Part shown: positions 5,813-20,653 of the stretch, in pieces
Layout: every line of letters starts with the position of its first letter
Position numbering within the stretch: the first letter of the stretch is position 1
Origin: Acaryochloris marina MBIC11017
GTDB lineage: Bacteria; Cyanobacteriota; Cyanobacteriia; Thermosynechococcales; Thermosynechococcaceae
Assembly: GCF_000018105.1 (NCBI RefSeq)
Contig: NC_009925.1
Coordinates: 4,140,001 to 4,172,000 of the forward strand
Length of the DNA: 32,000 nt
Reading direction: 5' to 3'
Notes under the pieces: generated by a model
What the model was told of the DNA's origin: nothing
What the model saw: the letters and a program-made list of their open reading frames with translations, nothing else
Databases searched by the model: none
Program-made: the position numbers and the translations under genes

Positions 5813-6253
5813 GGGGTTGGGTGGCAAACAAAGAGAACAACGCGCAAACCATTGAACAGTAAAGGCTTGCCCATAGACAGCAGTTTAGCTCGTTATGGTA
5901 GGTGACCGTAAGCAGGTCATGCAAGCAAGCCTCATAGCTATGATTGACGCTCTCTGATGATCAGGAGAGGGATATCAACATCCGTCTTTAGTCGAGAACT
6001 TTTCAGGTCGGTTGAACGACTAAAAGGTATCCAGTTACGGCAGACTTCTTTTAGAGAAGAAAATATGATTTCCTCGTCATATCGTGTCAGTTATGGTGAG
6101 GTCATAGGTCTTTTTATGTTCTGAATTTTAATTTCCTTCATATAATCTTTTGAGAAATAATTTATATATTCTCTTAGGTGCTGTAGGCTTTTTAGAAATA
6201 ATTTTCCTGGAATACCTTCTGTGTTTTGACGAGTTAAAGTCATATTTTGTGGG

Positions 6254-6283
6254 TTGCATTACATGGTAATTGATGGTTATAAT
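6254..6283 (+). promoter_or_regulatory. Sigma70-type promoter candidate for cassette 1 (TTGCAT-18 bp-TATAAT)
   Basis: TTGCAT at 6254-6259 and TATAAT at 6278-6283. It sits 17 bp inside the start of the near-identical block and implies a 5' leader of about 390 nt before the A1 ATG. Confidence 0.45.
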
Positions 6284-6677
6284 TAGGTCATTAAAAGTAT
6301 TTTTACTCTAATAAATTTTAAGATAAAACTTATTATCATATCATTATTATTTCTGAAAACAATAAAATATAAGCATCTTTTTTATTCACTTAAGGAATAC
6401 TTAGAGAATCCTGAGAATCTTCTCAGAGTGGTTATTGTAATTACAGTGTTTAGTAGCTGTAGGCCCAATCATTCCTGACTAAATAATCTAGAAAGAAATA
6501 AAGGAGTCATGAGTTTTCTTTGTTTCTTTTGCTTGTTTATCCAATATTTGAAGCGTTGTGATGAACTGCTTCTCAAATATTTGAATGAAACTAAGCAGGA
6601 ATGATTGCCTATTTTGTTGGTGTGCAGCCCCGATTGCTTTGATCTCTAAAAATTTATTCACCTTAGTGAGGTTTAAT

Positions 6678-7127
6678 ATGAAAGCTCAACGCCTTCTACC
6701 CCTTTGCTCTGCTCTTTTCTTGGGTTTAGCTGCTGCTCCTGCCTTTGCAGGTTCTGCTAGTGTTTCCAACAGCTTCTCCATTCGTGATATCAAGAATGGT
6801 TATTCTCACACCAATATTAAAGTGAAAGAATGGTACGGCGGTATTCGTTCTGCTGGAGCCGATGCTAGCAAGGTATCTGTTGGTGTTACCACAACCCAGG
6901 ACGGTAGCACGACTACTCAGACTCAATATTGTGGTTGGGGTTGTAAGAAGTCTACGACTACAAACAACGGCCTATTTTCTGAAACAGATTACTCTGTTGC
7001 CACTTCTTCTAGCTGGTCCAAAGAGTACGGTGCATTCAAAAAAGACACTAACGTTCATGTTCATGAGAGCTATCACTTTGATGGCATCGACAAGACTCAC
7101 ACCGTTGGCTCTAGCTTCAGCTTCTAA
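6678..7127 (+). CDS. Small secreted protein A1 (149 aa, Ser/Thr/Gly-rich, CxxxC, C-terminal ...HTVGSSFSF); unknown family
   Basis: SD gtgagg lies 7 nt upstream of ATG 6678. Sec signal peptide MKAQRLLPLCSALFLGLAAAPAFA|GS. A paralogous copy is at 10214-10663. The 31-codon extension from 6585 in the ORF track has no RBS. Confidence 0.8.
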   Translation: MKAQRLLPLCSALFLGLAAAPAFAGSASVSNSFSIRDIKNGYSHTNIKVKEWYGGIRSAGADASKVSVGVTTTQDGSTTTQTQYCGWGCKKSTTTNNGLFSETDYSVATSSSWSKEYGAFKKDTNVHVHESYHFDGIDKTHTVGSSFSF

Positions 7128-7165
7128 ATCAAGCTAGCTGCTTCATATCTAAGCCAAACAAACAA

Positions 7166-7190
7166 GGGGCAGCAGCTAAGCTGTTGCCCC
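7166..7190 (+). terminator. Strong intercistronic hairpin after gene A1 (attenuator or RNA-stabilising stem)
   Basis: GGGGCAGCAGC-taa-GCTGTTGCCCC is an 11-bp stem with one G-U pair, followed by TTTGCTC (short U-tract). It is conserved identically at 10702-10726. Confidence 0.55.
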
Positions 7191-7215
7191 TTTGCTCAGC
7201 TCAGGAGAATTAATC

Positions 7216-7956
7216 ATGCGTTATCGTCTTGGGCTGTTGAGTACATCGGTTGTGGGAATGTTGACATTGTCATCTGGCTCAGTTTTAGCCCAAACGACAA
7301 ATAACATCACAGTACCTAACAACTCCCAATCAACAGCTAACCCTGAAGTCAGCCTTGATCAGCAGGGCTCATTAGTAAATACTCAGGTCAACAGTACAAC
7401 CTTAGGCCGCAGTGTTGTTGGCAACGGCATAGCAGACTGTACCAGTAATGGTTTAAGCGTGTCAGCCTATGGTAGTGGTGTCGGTCCCTTTGATACCGGT
7501 ACGGTTGGCGGTGCGATTACCTATACCCATTCTTTTGGGATGGATACCTGTAAGCAGTACGCCAAGAATCAATTAGGGAAAGCGAAGCTTGAAACCTGTT
7601 TTTTATTAATCAGTAACTATTCCAAAATGGTTAAAGCAGGTATTGATGTCAGCTATACAGCGCTGATGGAAGTGGCTAATGTTGACTGTCCACCTGTGAC
7701 AGTTCGTCAAGCTGCGATTCCTCAGCCCTCTCCTTCTGCCTCGAATCGTCCAGCATCGACTCCGGTTTCATTGCAAGGGCAGCAACCCGCTCCAACGCCT
7801 ACGGTGCGAGAGTATGGCAATAGTCCACAGAATCCACCTCAAGCGCAGACCCCATCCCCATCGGAGCCACAACTCAAGACAGCATTACCTAACTCAACTT
7901 CAGAGTTGCCTGCTGTTCAAGGGCCTCAACGATTGACGGCTAAAGAGTTGCTTTAA
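7216..7956 (+). CDS. Secreted protein B1 (246 aa; 4-Cys globular part plus Pro/Gln/Ser-rich C-terminal tail); unknown family
   Basis: SD aggag at 7203-7207. Signal peptide MRYRLGLLSTSVVGMLTLSSGSVLA|QT. The tail reads PQPSPSASNRPASTPVSLQGQQPAPTPT..PQNPPQAQTPSPSEPQ. Copy at 10752-11492. Confidence 0.8.
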   Translation: MRYRLGLLSTSVVGMLTLSSGSVLAQTTNNITVPNNSQSTANPEVSLDQQGSLVNTQVNSTTLGRSVVGNGIADCTSNGLSVSAYGSGVGPFDTGTVGGAITYTHSFGMDTCKQYAKNQLGKAKLETCFLLISNYSKMVKAGIDVSYTALMEVANVDCPPVTVRQAAIPQPSPSASNRPASTPVSLQGQQPAPTPTVREYGNSPQNPPQAQTPSPSEPQLKTALPNSTSELPAVQGPQRLTAKELL

Positions 7957-8175
7957 TGTCGATTCAGGGGATAACACTGTGTGTTGCCTACTTTGATTCT
8001 CTGTTGCGACCTAATCAGACCAAAAAGCATTGCTGTGAATTTCTGGCTTGATAGTATTTCCAGCGCTAAAGAAAGACTTTTATAGTCTGTGATTAAGCCA
8101 GCCACATATGACTGACTTCAGCTCCCAGGATTGAAATGTCTCGGACAGGCACCCCGAATAAGGAGGGCATGATTG

Positions 8176-8553
8176 ATGCAACTGAAACTAACACTTTATG
8201 GTGCTGTGGCCTATGCCGTTTTCAGTACATCACCTTGCTATGCCCAGATAGTGCATGTGATGACGTTTCAGAACTCGTCGGGTGGACGCCATATTAGAGA
8301 AATTACTGGCCAACAAACCCAGGATGATCAGTCCATTGGTGTTTCTCTCAATACGTCTGATGAGCGTACAACAACCCGTTCTTCGTCCACAGTGAATGGT
8401 GTAACCCAAGAGCAAACCTATACCTATATCAACTCAGCTAAGAGTCAGGCAGTAGAAACGGGGCATCGCAGAAGAATTGAACATACTCGGCTTTTTGAAG
8501 CGTATGACTATTCGGACTACGCTGTTGACCACACTGTCGATTTTAGTTTTTAA
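8176..8553 (+). CDS. Small secreted protein C1 (125 aa, C-terminal ...VDHTVDFSF), distant paralogue of A
   Basis: SD aggagg at 8161-8166. Signal peptide MQLKLTLYGAVAYAVFSTSPCYA|QI. It shares collinear motifs with A (IREI/IRDI, IGVS..TTT, E.Y.[YF]...HTV..FSF). Copy at 11753-12130. Confidence 0.8.
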   Translation: MQLKLTLYGAVAYAVFSTSPCYAQIVHVMTFQNSSGGRHIREITGQQTQDDQSIGVSLNTSDERTTTRSSSTVNGVTQEQTYTYINSAKSQAVETGHRRRIEHTRLFEAYDYSDYAVDHTVDFSF

Positions 8554-8707
8554 GTGCTAGTTGACTGCCTGGATACCCAATAGTCTCTACATCTATGGCG
8601 ATTCAGTGTGCTGACCTCAGCGAGCTGCTAGGGAAGATCACTCTTCTAACCCTTCAGTGTTTTCTGAAAACCCTACTCCAGGACAGTTGTTGCTAGGAGA
8701 TTTAACG

Positions 8708-8998
8708 ATGAAATCTACGATATTTTTAACGACAGTTATCACAGGGTTGAGTATTCTACCTGCCCAGGCTCAGACTCAGTCTTTCTTTGGGGTGCCCATT
8801 GGTCAAGATGTGCCAGTGATCGTCTTTTCCCCGGTGACTCAGTACTATCCGAACTATTATCCGGGACCTGGTTTTTACCAATATAGTCACTATTTTCGAA
8901 GCACAGAACACCATTTAGACTTTGATAAATATGACTACCTGCTCAGTGACGACTTGGTATACAACTTTCCCGTAGTCGGCAATTTTAATTACAAGTAA
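8708..8998 (+). CDS. Small secreted Tyr/Pro/Phe-rich protein D1 (96 aa); unknown family
   Basis: SD aggag at 8693-8697. Signal peptide MKSTIFLTTVITGLSILPAQA|QT. Aromatic low-complexity stretch YYPNYYPGPGFYQYSHYF. Copy at 12313-12603. Confidence 0.75.
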   Translation: MKSTIFLTTVITGLSILPAQAQTQSFFGVPIGQDVPVIVFSPVTQYYPNYYPGPGFYQYSHYFRSTEHHLDFDKYDYLLSDDLVYNFPVVGNFNYK

Positions 8999-9154
8999 TT
9001 CTGAAACGGCTGTAGATTTATGGTATCCGCCAATCCCTTGTATTCAGCGATTGCAGGTAGTGAGGGTTGGATGGCCTCAGTCTTCTTATAAATAGATGCT
9101 TTAAGAAAGTGGGCGGCAGCCTAAAAGTTTTCAGTTATTCTAAGCATTATGACT

Positions 9155-9185
9155 AGCGCTCGTTATTGCGAGCGCTTTTTGCTTT
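9155..9185 (+). terminator. Rho-independent terminator closing cassette 1
   Basis: agcgctcg-ttattg-cgagcgct is a perfect 8-bp GC-rich stem followed by tttttgcttt, about 155 bp after the D1 stop. Confidence 0.75.
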
Positions 9186-9789
9186 CAATTTTTTAAGAAA
9201 ACCATTTGACTTGCAGAATCATAAGGAACGATAGCCTCAATAGTTGCTGTATCTCAACAGTGCAAGATATTTCTGGTGACGTAACGATCGCGCTTATTTC
9301 TCGATCACGATCAGTAATTGATATGGAGCTACTGCGCTTTCTGCCCATAATAGTGTTAGATAGGTTGGTCACCCTGTAGATCAAGCACTTTACGATGCCT
9401 CAGTAGGTGCAGATCATGGGCGACGTTGTGTGTGGTTCAATTTTTATGGCTCGGCCTAATTTTCACTTTTCAAGTTTATGCAGCTAGATGTGATTGTTAT
9501 TGAAGAAGGTTCATTGACGCTTCACTAGAATGAACTTTTTAGATAGCTTGAACGACTAGAAAGGTATCAAGTGATGATCAATAATTTTTAGAGGCTAAAA
9601 TAAAATTATCTCGTCAGATTGTGTCAGTTATAGTGGGTCTCTAGGTCTTTTTGTGCTCTCTATTTTAATTTTCTTCATGCAATCTTTTCGTCAACAATCA
9701 ATGCCTTCTCTTTGTGTTGTAGGTATTTCAGGAGTTGTGAGCCTGAGATAACTCATGTATTTTATTGATTGAAAGTCATATTTTGTGGG

Positions 9790-9819
9790 TTGCATTACAT
9801 GGTAATTGATGGTTATAAT
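9790..9819 (+). promoter_or_regulatory. Sigma70-type promoter candidate for cassette 2 (identical to 6254-6283)
   Basis: TTGCAT at 9790-9795, 18-bp spacer, TATAAT at 9814-9819. Confidence 0.45.
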
Positions 9820-10213
9820 TAGGTCATTAAAAGTATTTTTACTCTAATAAATTTTAAGATAAAACTTGTTATCATATCATTATTATCTCTGAAAACAATA
9901 AAATATAAGCATCTTTTTTATTTACTTAAGGAATACTTAGAGAATCCTGAGAATCTTCTCAGAGTGGTTATTGTAATTACAGTGTTTAGTAGCTGTAGGC
10001 CCAATCATTCCTGACTAAACAATCTAGAAAGAAATAAAGGAGTCATGAGTTTTCTTTGTTTCTTTTGCTTGTTTATCCAATATTTGAAGCGTTGTGATGA
10101 ACTGCTTCTCAAATATTTGAATGAAACTAAGCAGGAATGATTGCCTATTTTGTCGGTGTGCAGCCCCGATTGCTTTGATCTCTAAAAATTTATTCACTTT
10201 AGTGAGGTTTAAT

Positions 10214-10663
10214 ATGAAAGCTCAACGCCTTCTACCCCTTTGCTCTGCACTTTTCTTAGGTTTAGCTGCTGCTCCTGCCTTTGCAGGATCTGCTAGTGTT
10301 TCCAACAGCTTCTCCATTCGTGATATCAAGAATGGTTATTCTCACACCAGTATTAATGTTAATGAGTGGTACGGCGGTTATCGTTCTGCTGGAGCTGATG
10401 CCAGCAAGGTATCTGTTGGCGTTACCACTACTAAAGACGGTAGTGCTACGACTCAAACTAAGTACTGTGGACGCAATTGCCGTAAGTCCACAACAACTTA
10501 CAACGGCCTGTTTTCTGAAACAGATTACTCTGTTGCCAAGTCTTCTAGCTGGTCAAGAGAATCCGGTTTATTTACAAAAGACACCAACGTTCATGTCTAT
10601 GAGAGCTATGACTTTGATGGCATCGACAAGACTCACACCGTTGGCTCTAGCTTCAGCTTCTAA
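10214..10663 (+). CDS. Small secreted protein A2 (149 aa), divergent allele-like paralogue of A1
   Basis: Same RBS, signal peptide and C-terminus as A1. There are 18 amino-acid replacements, all between residues 46 and 133. Confidence 0.8.
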   Translation: MKAQRLLPLCSALFLGLAAAPAFAGSASVSNSFSIRDIKNGYSHTSINVNEWYGGYRSAGADASKVSVGVTTTKDGSATTQTKYCGRNCRKSTTTYNGLFSETDYSVAKSSSWSRESGLFTKDTNVHVYESYDFDGIDKTHTVGSSFSF

Positions 10664-10701
10664 ATCAAGCTAGCTGCTTCATATCTAAGCCAAACAAACA
10701 A

Positions 10702-10726
10702 GGGGCAGCAGCTAAGCTGTTGCCCC
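10702..10726 (+). terminator. Intercistronic hairpin after gene A2
   Basis: Identical to 7166-7190. Confidence 0.55.
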
Positions 10727-10751
10727 TTTGCTCAGCTCAGGAGAATCAATC

Positions 10752-11492
10752 ATGCGTTATCGTCTTGGGCTGTTGAGTACATCGGTTGTGGGAATGTTGA
10801 CATTGTCATCAGGCTCAGTTTTAGCCCAAACGACAAATAGCATCACAGTACCTAACAACTCCCAATCAACAGCTAACCCTGAAGTCAATCTTGATCAGCA
10901 GGGCTCATTAGTAAATACTCAGGTCAACAGTACAACCTTAGGCCGCAGTGTTGTTGGCAACGGCATAGCAGACTGTACCAGTAATGGTTTAAGCGTGTCA
11001 GCCTATGGTAGTGGTGTCGGTCCCTTTGATACCGGTACGGTTGGAGGTGCGATTACCTATACCCATTCTTTTGGGATGGATACCTGTAAGCAGTACGCCA
11101 AGAATCAATTAGGGAAAGCGAAGCTTGAAACCTGTTTTCTGTTAATCAGTAACTATTCCAAAATGGTTAAAGCAGGTATTGATGTCAGCTATACAGCACT
11201 GATGGAAGTGGCTAATGTTGACTGTCCGCCTGTAACGGTTCGTCAAGCTGCGATTCCTCAGCCCTCTCCTTCTGCCTCGAATCGTCCGGTATCGCCTCCG
11301 GTTTCATTACAGGGGCAGCAACCTGCTCCAACGCCTACGGTGCGAGAGTATGGCAATAGTCCACAGAATCCACCTCAAGCGCAGACCCCATCTCCAGTAG
11401 AACCGCAACTCAAGACAGCATTACCTAACTCAACTTCGGAGTTGCCTGCTGTTCAAGGGCCTCAACGGTTGACGGCTAAAGAGTTGCTTTGA
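10752..11492 (+). CDS. Secreted protein B2 (246 aa)
   Basis: About 96.5% nt identity to B1 by manual alignment, with 5 aa replacements. Same RBS and signal peptide. Confidence 0.8.
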   Translation: MRYRLGLLSTSVVGMLTLSSGSVLAQTTNSITVPNNSQSTANPEVNLDQQGSLVNTQVNSTTLGRSVVGNGIADCTSNGLSVSAYGSGVGPFDTGTVGGAITYTHSFGMDTCKQYAKNQLGKAKLETCFLLISNYSKMVKAGIDVSYTALMEVANVDCPPVTVRQAAIPQPSPSASNRPVSPPVSLQGQQPAPTPTVREYGNSPQNPPQAQTPSPVEPQLKTALPNSTSELPAVQGPQRLTAKELL

Positions 11493-11752
11493 TGTCGATT
11501 CAGGGGATAACACTGTGTGTTGCCTACTTATTCTCGGAGGATGTCGCTCAGTAATCTTGCACTTGTATAGATCAGGCGAAAGTGATTTCGACCTAGATGC
11601 ATTCCTGTTGATGCTTGAATTATGTCCATAACTCCAACGTGATCTCTAGTTTGGGGTAAAGAGCTGCAAGCAGGATTGACTTCAGCTTAGTTGCAGTGCC
11701 AGGACTATTACGACGCTATGTGAGTTTATTAGGATTTTGGAGGGCACAAGTA

Positions 11753-12130
11753 ATGCAGATGAAGCCAATACTTTATGGTGCTGTGGCCTATGCCGTTTTC
11801 AGTACATCACCCTGCTATGCCCAGATAGTGCACGTGATGACGTTTCAGAACTCATCGGGTGGACGCCATATTAGAGAAATTACAGGTCAACAAACCCAGG
11901 ATGATCAGTCCATTGGTGTTTCTCTCAATACGTCGGATGAGCGTACAACAACCCGCTCTTCGTCCACAGTGAATGGTGTGACCCAAGAGCAAACCTATAC
12001 ATACATTAACTCAGCTAAGAGTCAGGCAGTTGAAACGGGGCATCGCAGAAGAATTGAACGTACTCGGCTTTTTGAAGCGTATGACTATTCGGACTACGCT
12101 GTTGACCACACTGTCGATTTTAGTTTTTAA
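11753..12130 (+). CDS. Small secreted protein C2 (125 aa)
   Basis: SD ggaggg sits 8 nt upstream of ATG 11753. After the first 6 codons there are 13 nt differences from C1, 12 of them synonymous. Confidence 0.8.
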   Translation: MQMKPILYGAVAYAVFSTSPCYAQIVHVMTFQNSSGGRHIREITGQQTQDDQSIGVSLNTSDERTTTRSSSTVNGVTQEQTYTYINSAKSQAVETGHRRRIERTRLFEAYDYSDYAVDHTVDFSF

Positions 12131-12312
12131 GTTTGCATAGTGTATGCCCCAACAAGGATTGAGCAGATTGTCTATACACCAACAGGTGGTTGATCTTGCA
12201 GCCACTTGTGAGAGTGCTCACTGTGTTGAGCAGTTATGGGAAATCACTGTTCTGACCTATCGATCTTGTCTTGAAAAGTACTCCAAGGCAGTTGTTGCTA
12301 GGAGATTTAACG

Positions 12313-12603
12313 ATGAAATCTACGATATTTTTAACGACAGTTATCACAGGGTTGAGTATTCTACCTGCCCAGGCTCAGACTCAGTCTTTCTTTGGGGTGC
12401 CCATTGGTCAAGATGTGCCAGTGATCGTCTTTTCCCCTGTAACTCAGTACTATCCGAACTATTATCCGGGACCTGGTTTTTACCAATATAGTCACTATTT
12501 TCGAAGCACAGAACACCATTTAGATTTTGATAGATATGACTACCTGCTTAGCGACGACTTGGTATACAACTTTCCGGTAGTCGGCAATTTTAATTACAAG
12601 TAA
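12313..12603 (+). CDS. Small secreted Tyr/Pro/Phe-rich protein D2 (96 aa)
   Basis: 7 nt differences from D1 and one replacement (K to R). Same RBS. Confidence 0.75.
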   Translation: MKSTIFLTTVITGLSILPAQAQTQSFFGVPIGQDVPVIVFSPVTQYYPNYYPGPGFYQYSHYFRSTEHHLDFDRYDYLLSDDLVYNFPVVGNFNYK

Positions 12604-17403: not shown

Positions 17404-19776
17404 ATGGCCACGAGATCGCTAGCAGCAACCCCAAAAGGCATCGAAATAATTGAAAGAGCCTTGATGGATAAGCAATGGGGGTGTGATGATCTCAAGAAGC
17501 AGTGTGATTGTAGCCGCCAGCCTGCTGTTAAGTTCTGTGCAGGCAAAAACGTCGATAGAAAGCTTTTTGTTGGTTTTTGCAAAGTATTAGAGCTGGACTG
17601 GGAAGAAATTTCAGGTATTAAGACTGCTTCAGAAGTAGCTGAAACGACTCAGGTTGCAACTGATATAAATACGCTTGTCCAAAAGATTCGTCAGAAAGTA
17701 AAAGCTGATATTCACCATCGCTGTGGCACGATGCGGGTGCTGGATATGGAGCAGCCGATTGGACTGGGTGAAATTTATACTCGCGTCAATATTCTTGAGA
17801 AACTATCTGGAAGGCAGCGTTTAAGGGTTGATGAGCTATGGCAAGATTGCAATATTGATAACTTTGATCGGTGGCTGCTAGGACAGGTGCGTGTCAAACG
17901 AGTACCGGGATTAGAAGCGGTTGAACGTTATAACAAGCTGCTGATTTTAGGTAAGCCTGGAGCGGGTAAAACCACTTTTATGAAGCGGTTAGCAACCCAA
18001 TGCAATCAGGGAAAGTTTGAAGCTTACCGAATTCCTGTGTTTGTCACCCTGAAAGAATTTGCTGAAGCGCCAGGTAAACCCGATTTGCAAAGCTATATTT
18101 TCCAGCAATGGGGAACTTGTGAAATTGAGGAAAATGCTCTTGGCCAGGTTCTAAAAACTGGTCATGTTCTGATTTTATTGGATGGTCTAGATGAAGTTCA
18201 GGCTACGGATCATGATCGGGTTTTGAATTCAATTAAGACATTTACTGAACAGTTTCGCGACTGCCAGTTTGTGATGACTTGTCGGATTGCCGCTCGCGAA
18301 TATACATTTGAGCAGTTTACGGAAGTGGAAGTTGCTGATTTTAACGAAGAGCAAATAGAAGACTTTGCTACCAAGTGGTTTAGAACTAAGCAAGATCCTG
18401 AAAAGGGTGAAAATTTCATCAAACGCTTGCAGGAAAATAAGCCAATTCAAGAGCTAGCAACTAATCCTTTATTGCTGACATTGCTGTGTTTGGTATTCGG
18501 TGAGGCCAATGATTTTCCCCATAATCGTTCAGAGCTTTATAAGGAAGGGCTAGATGTTCTGCTGAAAAAATGGGATGGCAAACGCAATATTGAACGCGAT
18601 CAGGTTTACAAAAAACTGTCCTTGCAGCGTAAAGAAGATCTGTTGAGTCAATTGGCTTATCAAACCTTTGAGCAAGGAGACTACTTTTTTAAACAACGAG
18701 TCATTGAAACTAAAATCATTGACTATATCCGTAATTTGCCAGGTGCTAATGAAGATGAAGAAGCGCTTCAACTGGATAGCGAAGCTGTGCTCAAGTCAAT
18801 TGAAGCCCAGCATGGCCTGCTAGTGGAAAGGGCTAGGGGGATTTATTCCTTCTCACACTTAACTTTTCAAGAATATTTCACGGCTAAACAAATTACTTGT
18901 CCTACTTCTCAACTTCCTAAAGCCCTAGAAAATCTCGCAAAACATTGTTTGGAAAAACGTTATCGAGAGGTCTTTTTTCTTGTTGTAGGAATGTTGCCTG
19001 AAGCCGATGATTTTTTCAGACTGCTCAAAATCCAGATTGATCGATTAATCGCTGATGAACCTAATTTACAAGAGTTTTTGGTTTGGGGTTCTGGAAAAGC
19101 TCAATCAGTTAATGCTGACTATAAATCAGAAGCAATCCGGGCTTACTACCTCTACCTCGCCCTCGCCCGCGCCCGCGCCCGCGCCCGCGACCTCAACCTT
19201 GACCGCGCCCTCGCCCGCGCCCGCGCCCTCAACCTCGCCCTCGCCCGCGCCCGCGCCCTCGCCCGCGACCTCGACCTCGCCCTCGACCTCGCCCTCAATC
19301 TTGACCGCGCCCTCGCCCGCGCCCTCGACCTCGCCCGCGACCTCAACCTCGCCCGCGACCTCAACCTCTACCTCGCCCTCGACCTCACCCTCGACCTCTA
19401 CCTCGCCCTCGACCACGCCCTCGACCAACTAACCAAAATTGAGTCAAAAGGAAAAGATGATCCCGAAATTCTTATTAAATTAAGAGCATTACAATCTCAA
19501 CTCCCTGATTTACAGGACATTCAAGCTTTCAGCAGTTGGTGGAAAGATATGGGAGAATCTTGGATCAAAAATTTGCGCCAAGTCATGATTGACCATCGCA
19601 ATATTGGTCATTATTGGCAATTCACCCCAGCCCAAACGGAAAAACTGCAGCAGTATTTTGAGACCAATCAATTATTGGTTGATTGCCTCAATAGCGATTG
19701 CTACGTCACCAAGGCCACTCGCGAGGAGATCCTGTCAACTTTGCTATTACCGATAAGTGAACTGGAGAAGCAGTAG
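17404..19776 (+). CDS. NACHT-family STAND NTPase with N-terminal HTH-like module, C-terminal dipeptide-repeat array and conserved tail
   Basis: Walker A LILGKPGAGKTTFMKRL, Walker B VLILLDGLDEV, and NACHT-typical FVMTCRI, NPLLLTLLC and HLTFQEYF. The N-terminal approx 65 aa (SLAATPKGIEIIERAL..CSRQPAVKFCAG..VDRKLFVGFCKVLELDWEEI) resembles the module found at the N-terminus of many cyanobacterial NACHT/WD40 proteins. Confidence 0.9.
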   Translation: MATRSLAATPKGIEIIERALMDKQWGCDDLKKQCDCSRQPAVKFCAGKNVDRKLFVGFCKVLELDWEEISGIKTASEVAETTQVATDINTLVQKIRQKVKADIHHRCGTMRVLDMEQPIGLGEIYTRVNILEKLSGRQRLRVDELWQDCNIDNFDRWLLGQVRVKRVPGLEAVERYNKLLILGKPGAGKTTFMKRLATQCNQGKFEAYRIPVFVTLKEFAEAPGKPDLQSYIFQQWGTCEIEENALGQVLKTGHVLILLDGLDEVQATDHDRVLNSIKTFTEQFRDCQFVMTCRIAAREYTFEQFTEVEVADFNEEQIEDFATKWFRTKQDPEKGENFIKRLQENKPIQELATNPLLLTLLCLVFGEANDFPHNRSELYKEGLDVLLKKWDGKRNIERDQVYKKLSLQRKEDLLSQLAYQTFEQGDYFFKQRVIETKIIDYIRNLPGANEDEEALQLDSEAVLKSIEAQHGLLVERARGIYSFSHLTFQEYFTAKQITCPTSQLPKALENLAKHCLEKRYREVFFLVVGMLPEADDFFRLLKIQIDRLIADEPNLQEFLVWGSGKAQSVNADYKSEAIRAYYLYLALARARARARDLNLDRALARARALNLALARARALARDLDLALDLALNLDRALARALDLARDLNLARDLNLYLALDLTLDLYLALDHALDQLTKIESKGKDDPEILIKLRALQSQLPDLQDIQAFSSWWKDMGESWIKNLRQVMIDHRNIGHYWQFTPAQTEKLQQYFETNQLLVDCLNSDCYVTKATREEILSTLLLPISELEKQ
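19147..19425 (+). repeat. In-frame hexanucleotide microsatellite-like array (about 46 units, consensus RMC-CKC) inside the NACHT gene
   Basis: Units are GCCCGC, GCCCTC, GACCTC, AACCTC, GACCGC and TACCTC. They encode YLYLALARARARARDLNLDRALARARALNL...LALDHALD. The stretch is visibly GC-rich (about 70-75%) and has no stops in several frames on both strands. Confidence 0.95.
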
Positions 19777-19814: not shown

Positions 19815-20507
19815 TTATGTATCCTGGGTTGCTGCTTCTTCGCTTACCGAAGTCTGAACTTGCAACTGCTGCCTCAACCAATTGGCTGCTGCCGTATTCG
19901 TCTCCACCGTCAAACGCTCCAGCGTTTCTTCCACAAGACCAGTCGGTAGCCCCGTCAATACCTGTGAAGATTCGAGGATCTCATATACACCCACTTCAGA
20001 TAGCCCAAACGCAAAAAGCTGTCTACCTTTAACATCAATGACCCAATATTCAGCAATTCCCAAACTCGCATAAAGCTGCTTTTGCTCATCTAGATCAATA
20101 TTTAGCGTCGTATCTGCAATTTCTCCTACCAAATCCGGCAAACGGTGGCGATTCAGCTCAATGCGCCGAGGTTCACCCGGTTGCCACCGAGGAAAATTCT
20201 CTCCCTTATACAGCACTAAATCAGGCGCACAAGCATGGGTATCCGGTAGCTCCAATAAGCAACGACCATAGGACTGCAAGGCGGCTTCAGGATGTAAAAA
20301 CGCCCAAACAAAAAAGACCGCCGTAATTAAATCGCTAAATGAAGCATGATTTGGCCCTTCTGTCCCTATATCAACCCATAACCATCCTGCATAAAACGCA
20401 ATCTTGCGCCAGTCGTCTTTCCCATCTCGGATAGCCACATAGTCTTGCCAAGTTGCATCCCGACGCTGGAGGATTAGCGATTCAGTTTTGTCCAGAGAAA
20501 GAGTCAT
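19815..20507 (-). CDS. Uma2-family (DUF820) putative restriction-endonuclease-fold protein
   Basis: PDLVLY, GEPRRIELNRHRLPDLVGEI and LYASLGIAEYWVIDV fit the Uma2 PD-(D/E)xK-like core. The likely start is MTLSLDK at 20507; the ORF opens at 20546. Confidence 0.8.
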   Translation of the reverse strand: MTLSLDKTESLILQRRDATWQDYVAIRDGKDDWRKIAFYAGWLWVDIGTEGPNHASFSDLITAVFFVWAFLHPEAALQSYGRCLLELPDTHACAPDLVLYKGENFPRWQPGEPRRIELNRHRLPDLVGEIADTTLNIDLDEQKQLYASLGIAEYWVIDVKGRQLFAFGLSEVGVYEILESSQVLTGLPTGLVEETLERLTVETNTAAANWLRQQLQVQTSVSEEAATQDT

Positions 20508-20653
20508 GGGTAGACACCTATCGCACCCTTTCATCATAATCTCCATTGATTTAGCTGCTTGGCAAGGGAGATAGAGTAAAGGCTTATGTATTAACGCTGA
20601 CCGGAATACCTAGCAAATTCAAAACTGATTCCAGGTAAATACTACGTCATGTT

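Follow-up and report, generated by a model that had tools for sequence, protein, structure and literature searches.

The closest described layout among bacterial NACHT proteins is that of the "hybrid" C-terminal class, which combines a repeat module with a small distinct domain (Kibby et al.), and pentapeptide repeats are listed among the sensor repeats of these bacterial proteins. In fungi, the WD, ANK and TPR repeats of the NOD-like receptors (NLRs), such as those of the Podospora nwd/het genes, are highly conserved internally, evolve in concert and are polymorphic in repeat number (Dyrka et al. 2014, PMC4986451). Here, we analyzed a stretch of 32,000 nucleotides of the Acaryochloris marina MBIC11017 genome (NC_009925.1, positions 4,140,001 to 4,172,000; hereafter the window), in which a gene coding for a NACHT protein contains an array of hexanucleotide units read as x-[L/R] dipeptides. 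The layout of this protein matches that of the hybrid class, the array being followed by a small conserved domain named NCH2. With repeat-bearing NACHT and NLR proteins in general it shares the position of the repeat, C-terminal to the NACHT helical module, as well as the tripartite layout and a NOD2/NLRC4-like core. It differs from them in the unit, which spans two residues (6 nt) instead of the roughly 5 to 45 residues of other NACHT sensor repeats, and which has no recognized fold or Pfam model. Lists of the repeats carried by bacterial NACHT proteins do not include the x-[L/R] repeat, and no prior description of it was found in the searchable literature. It is best described as a previously unmodeled arm of dipeptide repeats in a very large family of cyanobacterial NACHT-NCH2 proteins and, as such, as an instance of the repeat-based NLR sensor arms. 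With a probability of about 0.55, we propose that the array is a translated and selectively maintained arm of a bacterial NLR-like switch protein, made of recurrently expanded C-rich hexamers, likely helical and acting as a sensor or autoinhibitory element.

Tandem Repeats Finder (TRF) detected one tandem array in the whole window, at 19155–19423 (period 6, 44.8 copies, 76% matches, score 223). Its 46 hexamers, closed by a GAC codon, are in frame with the open reading frame (ORF) of the host gene, and Leu or Arg occupies the even position in 45 of the 46 units, the exception being a His in a DH dipeptide. This confirms the two-residue periodicity over about 46 six-nucleotide units that the initial annotation had read, and the two translations match. 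Ten unit types make up the array, namely GCCCTC and GCCCGC (12 copies each), GACCTC (9), TACCTC (4), AACCTC (3), GACCGC (2) and four singletons; it is interrupted, the longest perfect run being (GCCCGC)4. Four successive CCKC-NN units occur 39 times in the window, always on the + strand and within the array, against 0.01 times in dinucleotide-preserving shuffles. The GC content reaches 0.70–0.76 in the array vs ~0.42 nearby, as the annotation had noted, with a strong skew of C over G. The tract had also been described as open in several frames on both strands and as the source of three artefactual ORFs. All three are indeed in the ORF list (Table 1) and are by-products of a stop-free repeat; antisense and out-of-frame open runs also accompany the arrays of homologous loci.

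Hexamers that give rise to dipeptide repeats are also known from C9orf72, where the pathological, non-coding expansion of a G4C2 hexanucleotide leads to dipeptide-repeat proteins. The likeness lies in the G/C-rich units, in the alternative frames, which read poly-PA, PR and PS, and in the G-quadruplex (G4) potential of the G-rich strand. In the window, however, the repeat is a normal, in-frame and conserved part of a bacterial protein. The array might nevertheless act at the level of the nucleic acid, through a regulatory role of G4 or i-motif structures, or be the variable region of a diversity-generating retroelement. The only three canonical G4 motifs of the window are located in the array, on the template strand, its RNA folds better than shuffled sequences (z = -4.4), and its NNC codons superficially resemble adenine mutagenesis of AAC codons. 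Yet a G4 motif is found within the segment in just 7 of 75 homologous loci, which makes it a by-product of GCC-CKC units, and a G-quadruplex was ruled out as a conserved feature; the folding score reflects the trivial pairing of GCGC-containing repeats. As for a retroelement, the variation is not adenine-specific, no reverse transcriptase was present among the neighboring ORFs that were scanned (some of them only), and targeting was rejected because the 32 kb contain no second, template-like copy of the array. Both versions of this explanation appear scarcely credible.

The host protein combines a NACHT domain with NCH2 (NACHT C-terminal helical domain 2), both matched far above the Pfam cutoffs (Table 1), and the initial identification of a signal transduction ATPase with numerous domains (STAND) of the NACHT type thus holds. 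The Walker B motif consists of LILLD and GLDE (residues 256–264), the Walker A and B residues are invariant in an alignment of 105 sequences, and R579 and Y582 are near-invariant. The protein was modeled with AlphaFold2 (AF2) on the same alignment, with a mean predicted local distance difference test (pLDDT) score of 80.7 and values of ~85–95 in NCH2. A Foldseek comparison matched the core of the model to NOD2 (5irm), NLRC4 (4kxf) and NLRP3, with E-values of 1e-11 to 1e-9 over ~500–590 columns, and thereby revealed the NBD-HD1-WHD-HD2 fold of animal NLRs; the TM-scores to these structures are only ~0.38 because the domain orientation differs. In the model, the array directly follows the HD2-equivalent helices, where NOD2 and NLRC4 carry their leucine-rich repeats (LRRs), and the conserved NCH2 comes next, in agreement with the annotated position at the usual site of the STAND sensor repeats.

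The N-terminal five-helix domain is presumed to be an output or effector domain. It has no Pfam match in the window protein, and several homologs match helix-turn-helix (HTH) models at their N-terminus, either PF01381 (HTH_3) or PF13443 (HTH_26). The experimentally defined antiphage NACHT systems of NCBIfam were not matched above their cutoffs (EruA, 52 bits for a cutoff of 1000; DS8, 29 bits for a cutoff of 790), and PADLOC returned for the host protein only a match of the NACHT region to the candidate system PDC-S60. Since no curated antiphage family was matched over the full length, a defense role would be proposed by analogy only. At the other end of the protein, NCH2 displays a near-invariant CLNSDCY motif (residues 761–767, window 19684–19704), four near-invariant Trp (W712, W713, W720 and W738) and a conserved LLLP tail; the region of the CLNSDCY motif and the Trp residues may bind a metal or a partner.

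More than 7,454 homologs of the host protein were retrieved at E ≤ 1e-10, and the named ones are nearly all cyanobacterial. They are typically 760–830 amino acids (aa) long with the NACHT+NCH2 architecture, and the majority of the 120 best ones contain, around residues 580–680, an x-[L/R] run whose flavor depends on the lineage (A/D-L/R, S/D-L/R, T-L, N-L or Y-L). Measured from anchor to anchor, the segment that holds the array is present in all 113 anchored homologs, with a length of 29 to 235 aa (median 87), and in some homologs it is wholly non-periodic. Other protein contexts were checked within ~630 kb of local cyanobacterial DNA, where long x-[L/R] runs were confined, among 864 open frames, to genes of the NACHT family and to other frames of the same arrays, with the single exception of an Arg/Leu-rich minus-strand frame in locus L030. 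Searched alone against a database of 5.8 billion proteins, the array had no scored match because the composition correction discards low-complexity matches, and exact matching of the upstream flank in metagenome contigs returned 0 matches. None of the Pfam models for pentapeptide repeats (PF00805), LRR, TPR, WD40 or HEAT matched the array even at E ≤ 10, its period being of two residues where those repeats have periods of 5, about 24, 34 or about 40. Two Pfam candidates, zf_DPOE_2 and RHH_6 (E ~0.2), were discarded as noise, and a designed helical toroid of the PDB (4yxx) as a low-complexity match.

Cyanobacterial pentapeptide repeats follow the pattern A(D/N)LXX and thus resemble the array in their favored residues, Ala, Asp/Asn and Leu, as well as in the taxa where they occur. 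They differ by their period of five, whereas the array has a period of two, is rich in Arg and is not modeled by AF2 as a beta-helix.

Seven of the best 120 homologs lack NCH2 (P0036, P0042, P0052, P0058, P0060, P0085 and P0108). Four of them (P0036, P0042, P0052 and P0060) lose the frame or terminate at the array or immediately past it, and P0085 and P0108 stop before reaching it. These cases suggest either that the arrays lead to broken assemblies or frameshifted gene calls when reads are short, or that they are true hotspots of pseudogenization.

The codon usage of the segment bears on the origin of the arrays. For the window, the anchor-defined segment containing the array was compared with the rest of the gene: CTC accounts for 91% of the Leu codons in the segment vs 8% in the rest, CGC for 100% vs 28% of Arg, GCC for 100% vs 21% of Ala and GAC for 93% vs 19% of Asp, and the share of codons ending in C (NNC) over all residues is 0.88 vs 0.15. 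The same holds for 22 pooled loci with regular arrays, in which CTC reaches 70% vs 8% elsewhere, with 84% for GAC, 57% for TCC and 79% for ACC. In 19 loci with degenerate segments the excess is in NNT codons (CTT 42% vs 9% elsewhere, ACT 58%, GCT 46%). Periodicity correlates with the excess of third-position C (Spearman rho 0.67, p = 3e-11), and in 51 of 76 loci TRF detected a tandem array within the segment, 43 of them with a period multiple of 6. As synonymous choice is not dictated by the amino-acid pattern, these observations suggest that a few C-rich hexamers were amplified in blocks of at least one unit and then underwent C-to-T decay. Slippage during replication or unequal exchange would probably act on NNC-CTC or NNC-CGC seed units and would build and rebuild the arrays by in-frame duplication and deletion of blocks whose length is a multiple of 6 nt. 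Array length and dominant residue type would shift in this way between species and paralogs, after which C-to-T changes would erode the arrays and some lineages would freeze them into unique sequences of fixed length.

Syntenic orthologs were found in the Acaryochloris marina genome CP064923 (L081) and in two Logan assemblies (L082 and L083), all with the gene order of the window: epimerase, 245-aa ORF, Tex, NACHT, Ppk1, 230-aa ORF and SLT. The array measures 279 nt in the window, 177 nt in L081, 219 nt in L083 and 350 nt in L082, so that 102, 60 and 42 nt, or 17, 10 and 7 hexamers, separate the three intact alleles from one another. The initial annotation had expected the repeat number to change in multiples of 6 nt; these differences, together with the only strain-level indel described below (2 aa), agree with it. 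The dominant odd codon also changes, from GCC in the window to TCC (Ser) in L081 and GCC/ACC in L083. The length of the L082 array is 2 modulo 3 and its frame is shifted: the annotated product reads the P/S/T frame and ends without NCH2. P0160, which belongs to the same cluster, has its frame break elsewhere in the array and the same out-of-frame tail. Out-of-frame alleles lose NCH2, and both frameshifts could be pseudogenes or short-read errors.

Compared with L081, the array has a synonymous divergence (dS) of 0.13, where the core reaches 0.50 and NCH2 0.75. Both lineages retain NNC codons while the content of the array has changed, which fits a re-amplification after their split. A naive ratio of non-synonymous to synonymous divergence (dN/dS) is above 1 in the array, but this is no proof of selection because repeat units are not positionally orthologous. 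A tally over unit types explains their diversity by ~7 non-synonymous and 2–3 synonymous events, as under neutrality, and a reading of the ratio as positive selection was rejected. In Nostoc, genes whose flanks are 93% identical carry arrays 107, 69 and 91 aa long, with 43–51% identity.

Several of these traits are those of the fungal NLR repeats: arrays stand in the sensor position, repeat number differs between alleles, effector domains are swapped, units are closer to each other in DNA than orthologous positions are, and lineage-specific unit types sweep the array. The orthologs and the Nostoc genes thus display the allelic differences in repeat number and the lineage-specific homogenized units that define concerted evolution. 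The differences are in scale and tempo. Fungal units span ~100–130 nt instead of 6 nt, strain-level polymorphism is rare here and turnover slower, and the event counts of the array are compatible with neutrality. The internal identity is 76% at the nucleotide level over 93 aa, where the fungal repeats are defined by at least 85% amino-acid identity over at least 100 aa (PMC4986451), positive selection at defined positions being a further trait of that type.

The N-terminal region (17404–17700) diverges between orthologs far more than the other parts of the gene and shares ~50–60% nucleotide identity with L081, L082 and L083, with a dN of 0.58–0.90, the lowest value being that of L083. In one cluster built at 90% identity, the N-terminal ~110 residues of P0113 and of P0154/P0155 are fully exchanged, and the 400 aa upstream of the array are 94% identical. 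This suggests that output domains may be swapped. Two genes of the family were found in pieces. In L081 (4255–7716), the NACHT ortholog is apparently split near its 5' end by an insertion sequence element encoding HTH_23/HTH_33 and DDE_3 transposase-type proteins, which leaves an ORF of 228 aa upstream, a candidate for the N-terminal piece, and a C-terminal ORF of 571 aa. The other, a related gene of Acaryochloris sp. 'Moss Beach' from the cluster of P0009, is annotated as two pieces of 483 and 250 aa.

The array resembles the simple-sequence contingency loci of bacteria as a short-unit tandem repeat located in the coding part of a conflict-type gene, with indels in multiples of the unit and occasional frameshifted alleles. 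Phase-variable loci of this type have long perfect tracts, and slippage switches their expression where the unit is not divisible by 3 or lies in a promoter. The array could be a hypervariable element of this kind, in which frequent slippage within populations alters the repeat number or the frame and thereby tunes or switches the receptor; the initial annotation had called the tract potentially length-hypervariable. The unit-multiple differences between orthologs would fit such a mode, as would P0097 and P0159, which are separated by a 2-aa indel and five substitutions, all in the array, and by none of the 569 positions outside, and the frameshifts of L082 and P0160 at different points of the array. 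We compared 25 pairs of near-identical alleles from 17 clusters at ≥ 90% identity, a threshold that biases the comparison against very different arrays but at which small indels would still show. An indel in the array was seen in just one pair and in none of the other 24, and over all pairs the substitution rate of the segment equals that of the core (1.7% vs 1.4%, p = 0.27). In addition, the array is interrupted, with at most four perfect units, slippage of a 6-nt unit within an ORF cannot switch the frame, the unit being a multiple of 3, and the frameshifted alleles, which were assembled from short reads, could be errors or pseudogenes. The interrupted tract and the rarity of strain-level indels argue against a contingency locus, which we consider very improbable, and hypervariability in length was not borne out. 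The variation of the array appears to lie between species and paralogs and would not represent a rapid switch at the population level.

The array could also be a tolerated coding microsatellite, a near-neutral filler of a permissive linker between NACHT and NCH2. Slippage would produce the repeat, selection would only keep the frame and avoid disruptive residues, and the function would be limited to tethering. The wide range of lengths agrees with this proposal, as do the free choice of the odd-position residue (A, S, D, T, N or Y types by lineage), the wholly non-periodic segments of some homologs, the low AF2 confidence in the array and the small number of events listed above, which neutral change would suffice to produce. 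It is harder to reconcile with the constraints that the segment displays. All 113 anchored homologs possess it, and in each of the 46 units of the window the even codon begins with C, whereas the odd codons differ from unit to unit in their first and second bases. Family arrays have L (65%) or R (26%) at even positions, with I, V and F nearly absent though one mutation away from CTC, and D (35%), A (30%), S (9%), T (6%) or N (5%) at odd positions, in a tally partly conditioned on the selection and detection of the arrays.

Further information comes from three subfamilies (L042/L046/L054/L068, L028/L056/L074 and L013/L055/L066) in which the segment is non-periodic, with a fixed length of 76–87 aa (76–78 aa in several subfamilies) and ordinary codon usage. 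These frozen segments diverge about as slowly as NCH2 and read as short helices parted by G/S/N/P turns; LDLAR and LALDLALDR remnants are visible in them, and the segments look like former arrays. Within their subfamilies they are under ordinary purifying selection, which argues against a pure filler. We hold this last explanation to be rather unlikely, though it deserves to be weighed seriously.

Regarding the fold, AF2 placed helical hairpins in the array of the window (residues 575–594, 599–610, 618–646 and 651–682), and helices were again obtained for a homolog with an S/D/T-L array. Ala, Leu and Arg amount to 75% of the window array (70 of 93 residues), which contains no Val or Ile. The likeliest conformation would be a helical arm that runs on into NCH2. 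The alternative is a beta-structured or self-assembling element, a beta-solenoid or cross-beta made of period-2 strands, that would mediate oligomerization or signaling in the manner of NLR amyloid motifs. The period is that of classical strands, odd positions hold strand- or turn-prone S, T, N and D in many homologs, and AF2 offers no confident alternative. However, neither face of the window array is hydrophobic, the even one being made of Leu and Arg and the odd one of Ala and Asp (hydrophobic power of 0.29 at 180 degrees), and the Leu positions hold hardly any beta-branched or aromatic residues. AF2 gives helices for both types of array, and the frozen derivatives read as helices and turns. 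The known NLR amyloid motifs, fungal and some bacterial, are short, terminal and paired with a partner gene, an arrangement unlike the one described here. A beta structure therefore seems improbable.

In the model that we favor, the array would occupy the slot of the LRR, WD40 or TPR sensor repeats of other STAND and NLR proteins and would tether the conserved NCH2 to the NTPase. Its even positions would be held to Leu or Arg and its odd positions to small or acidic residues, and its helical hairpins, together with NCH2, would form an all-alpha C-terminal arm that may serve as a sensor or autoinhibitory element. The observations behind this model are the anatomy of the protein and the position of the array, the conservation across the family, the codon signature, the 6-nt-multiple indels between orthologs and the rarity of strain-level change.

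Several points weigh against it. First, the role as a sensor is proposed from position and analogy alone, and the tolerance in length (29–235 aa) and the varied composition fit a loosely constrained spacer equally well. Second, the confidence of AF2 in the array is low (pLDDT of 47–75 in the window and 32–49 in the S/D/T-L homolog, the latter too low to be informative), comparisons with Pfam and PDB sequences gave noise only, no Pfam model or solved structure covering the array, and the hydrophobic-moment spectrum of the window array has no amphipathic periodicity of 3.6 residues (all |z| < 1), the family as a whole showing only a weak sub-period of ~4 residues; a strict period of two is a classical signature of beta strands. 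Third, the NNC bias persists across distant lineages beyond what simple neutral slippage would maintain. Fourth, L083 comes from a close genome, with nucleotide identities of 96.8% for Tex (dS 0.12) and 94.3% for Ppk1 (dS 0.26), but the NACHT core (17704–19128) has a dS of 0.93, far above the 0.12–0.26 of its neighbors. The NACHT allele is therefore older than the split of the genomes, which would imply that recombination replaced the allele or that allelic lineages have persisted for long at this conserved locus. Part of the array differences may thus have been inherited with the allele and not made by slippage in situ.

Table 1. Location of the array, of the host gene and its domains, and of associated features in the window.
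Feature	Position	Strand	Basis or description
Host gene, 790-aa HTH-like / NACHT / x-[L/R] array / NCH2 protein	17404–19776	+	ORF, translation, Pfam
N-terminal five-helix HTH-like domain, residues 10–70	17431–17613	+	AF2 helices 10–22, 27–34, 38–45, 52–61, 66–70; pLDDT ~96
NACHT NTPase domain, residues 179–328	17938–18387	+	PF05729, E = 5.1e-20, 72.4 bits vs cutoff 26.7
Walker A GKPGAGKT, residues 183–190	17950–17973	+	Translation
Post-NACHT helical module, HD1/WHD/HD2 equivalent, ending in the conserved AIRAYY anchor	18388–19146	+	All-helical in AF2, mostly pLDDT >80
x-[L/R] array, residues 582–674	19147–19425	+	46 hexamers NNC-CKC + GAC, register from 19147, coding for [A/D/N/Y/T]-[L/R] dipeptides
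NCH2, residues 692–783	19477–19752	+	PF22727, E = 4.7e-35, 120.1 bits vs cutoff 27, 93/96 profile positions
Out-of-frame ORF, P/S/T/A-rich, artefactual	19055–19432	+	ORF list, frame translations of the array
Antisense ORF, artefactual	19126–19428	-	ORF list
Antisense ORF, artefactual	19152–19364	-	ORF list
Three canonical G4 motifs (G3N1-7)x4	19166–19186, 19208–19228, 19244–19264	- (template strand)	The only such motifs of the window

Other features of the window were noted. Between the NACHT gene and ppk1 lies a gene of the Uma2 family (PF05685, putative restriction endonuclease; 19815–20546, - strand), with weak PADLOC matches to the candidate systems PDC-S03 and PDC-S17. The matching intergenic site of all three orthologous loci (L081, L082 and L083) lacks this gene, which is thus an insertion specific to the window genome. 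A tandem segmental duplication of ~3.5 kb is located at about 6178–12500 (+ strand), with copies offset by 3536–3605 nt and 92–98% identical; it duplicates a pair of ORFs (180 and 254 aa, with copies of the pair at 6585–7956 and 10121–11492) and a downstream ORF, none of them with a Pfam match. A gene of the exosortase family (EpsH, PF09721; 28949–30475, + strand), close to the end of the window, is unrelated to the array.

Bacterial NLR-like proteins are relatives of the innate-immune receptors of animals and fungi, hence the importance of how their sensor arms arise and diversify. Here, a family of thousands of proteins across the cyanobacteria fills the sensor slot with the shortest repeat seen there so far, a dipeptide encoded by a hexanucleotide, for which domain databases offer no model. 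For annotation, such arrays yield spurious ORFs on both strands and may break short-read assemblies and give frameshifted gene calls. The codon signature offers a readable record of the birth, turnover, decay and freezing of the arrays, by which it becomes directly testable how a receptor arm, and perhaps a helical domain, emerged from simple repetitive DNA. A more speculative and distinctly unlikely extension would be that the family possesses a generator of sensors: a biased microsatellite process would keep spinning out C-rich arrays that give each lineage a new surface or length, some of them maturing into fixed helical domains, and the NNC codons would mark a specific, possibly directed, amplification. 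If true, a folded module would have been born de novo from a simple DNA repeat, providing a prokaryotic counterpart to the repeat-driven diversification of fungal NLRs.

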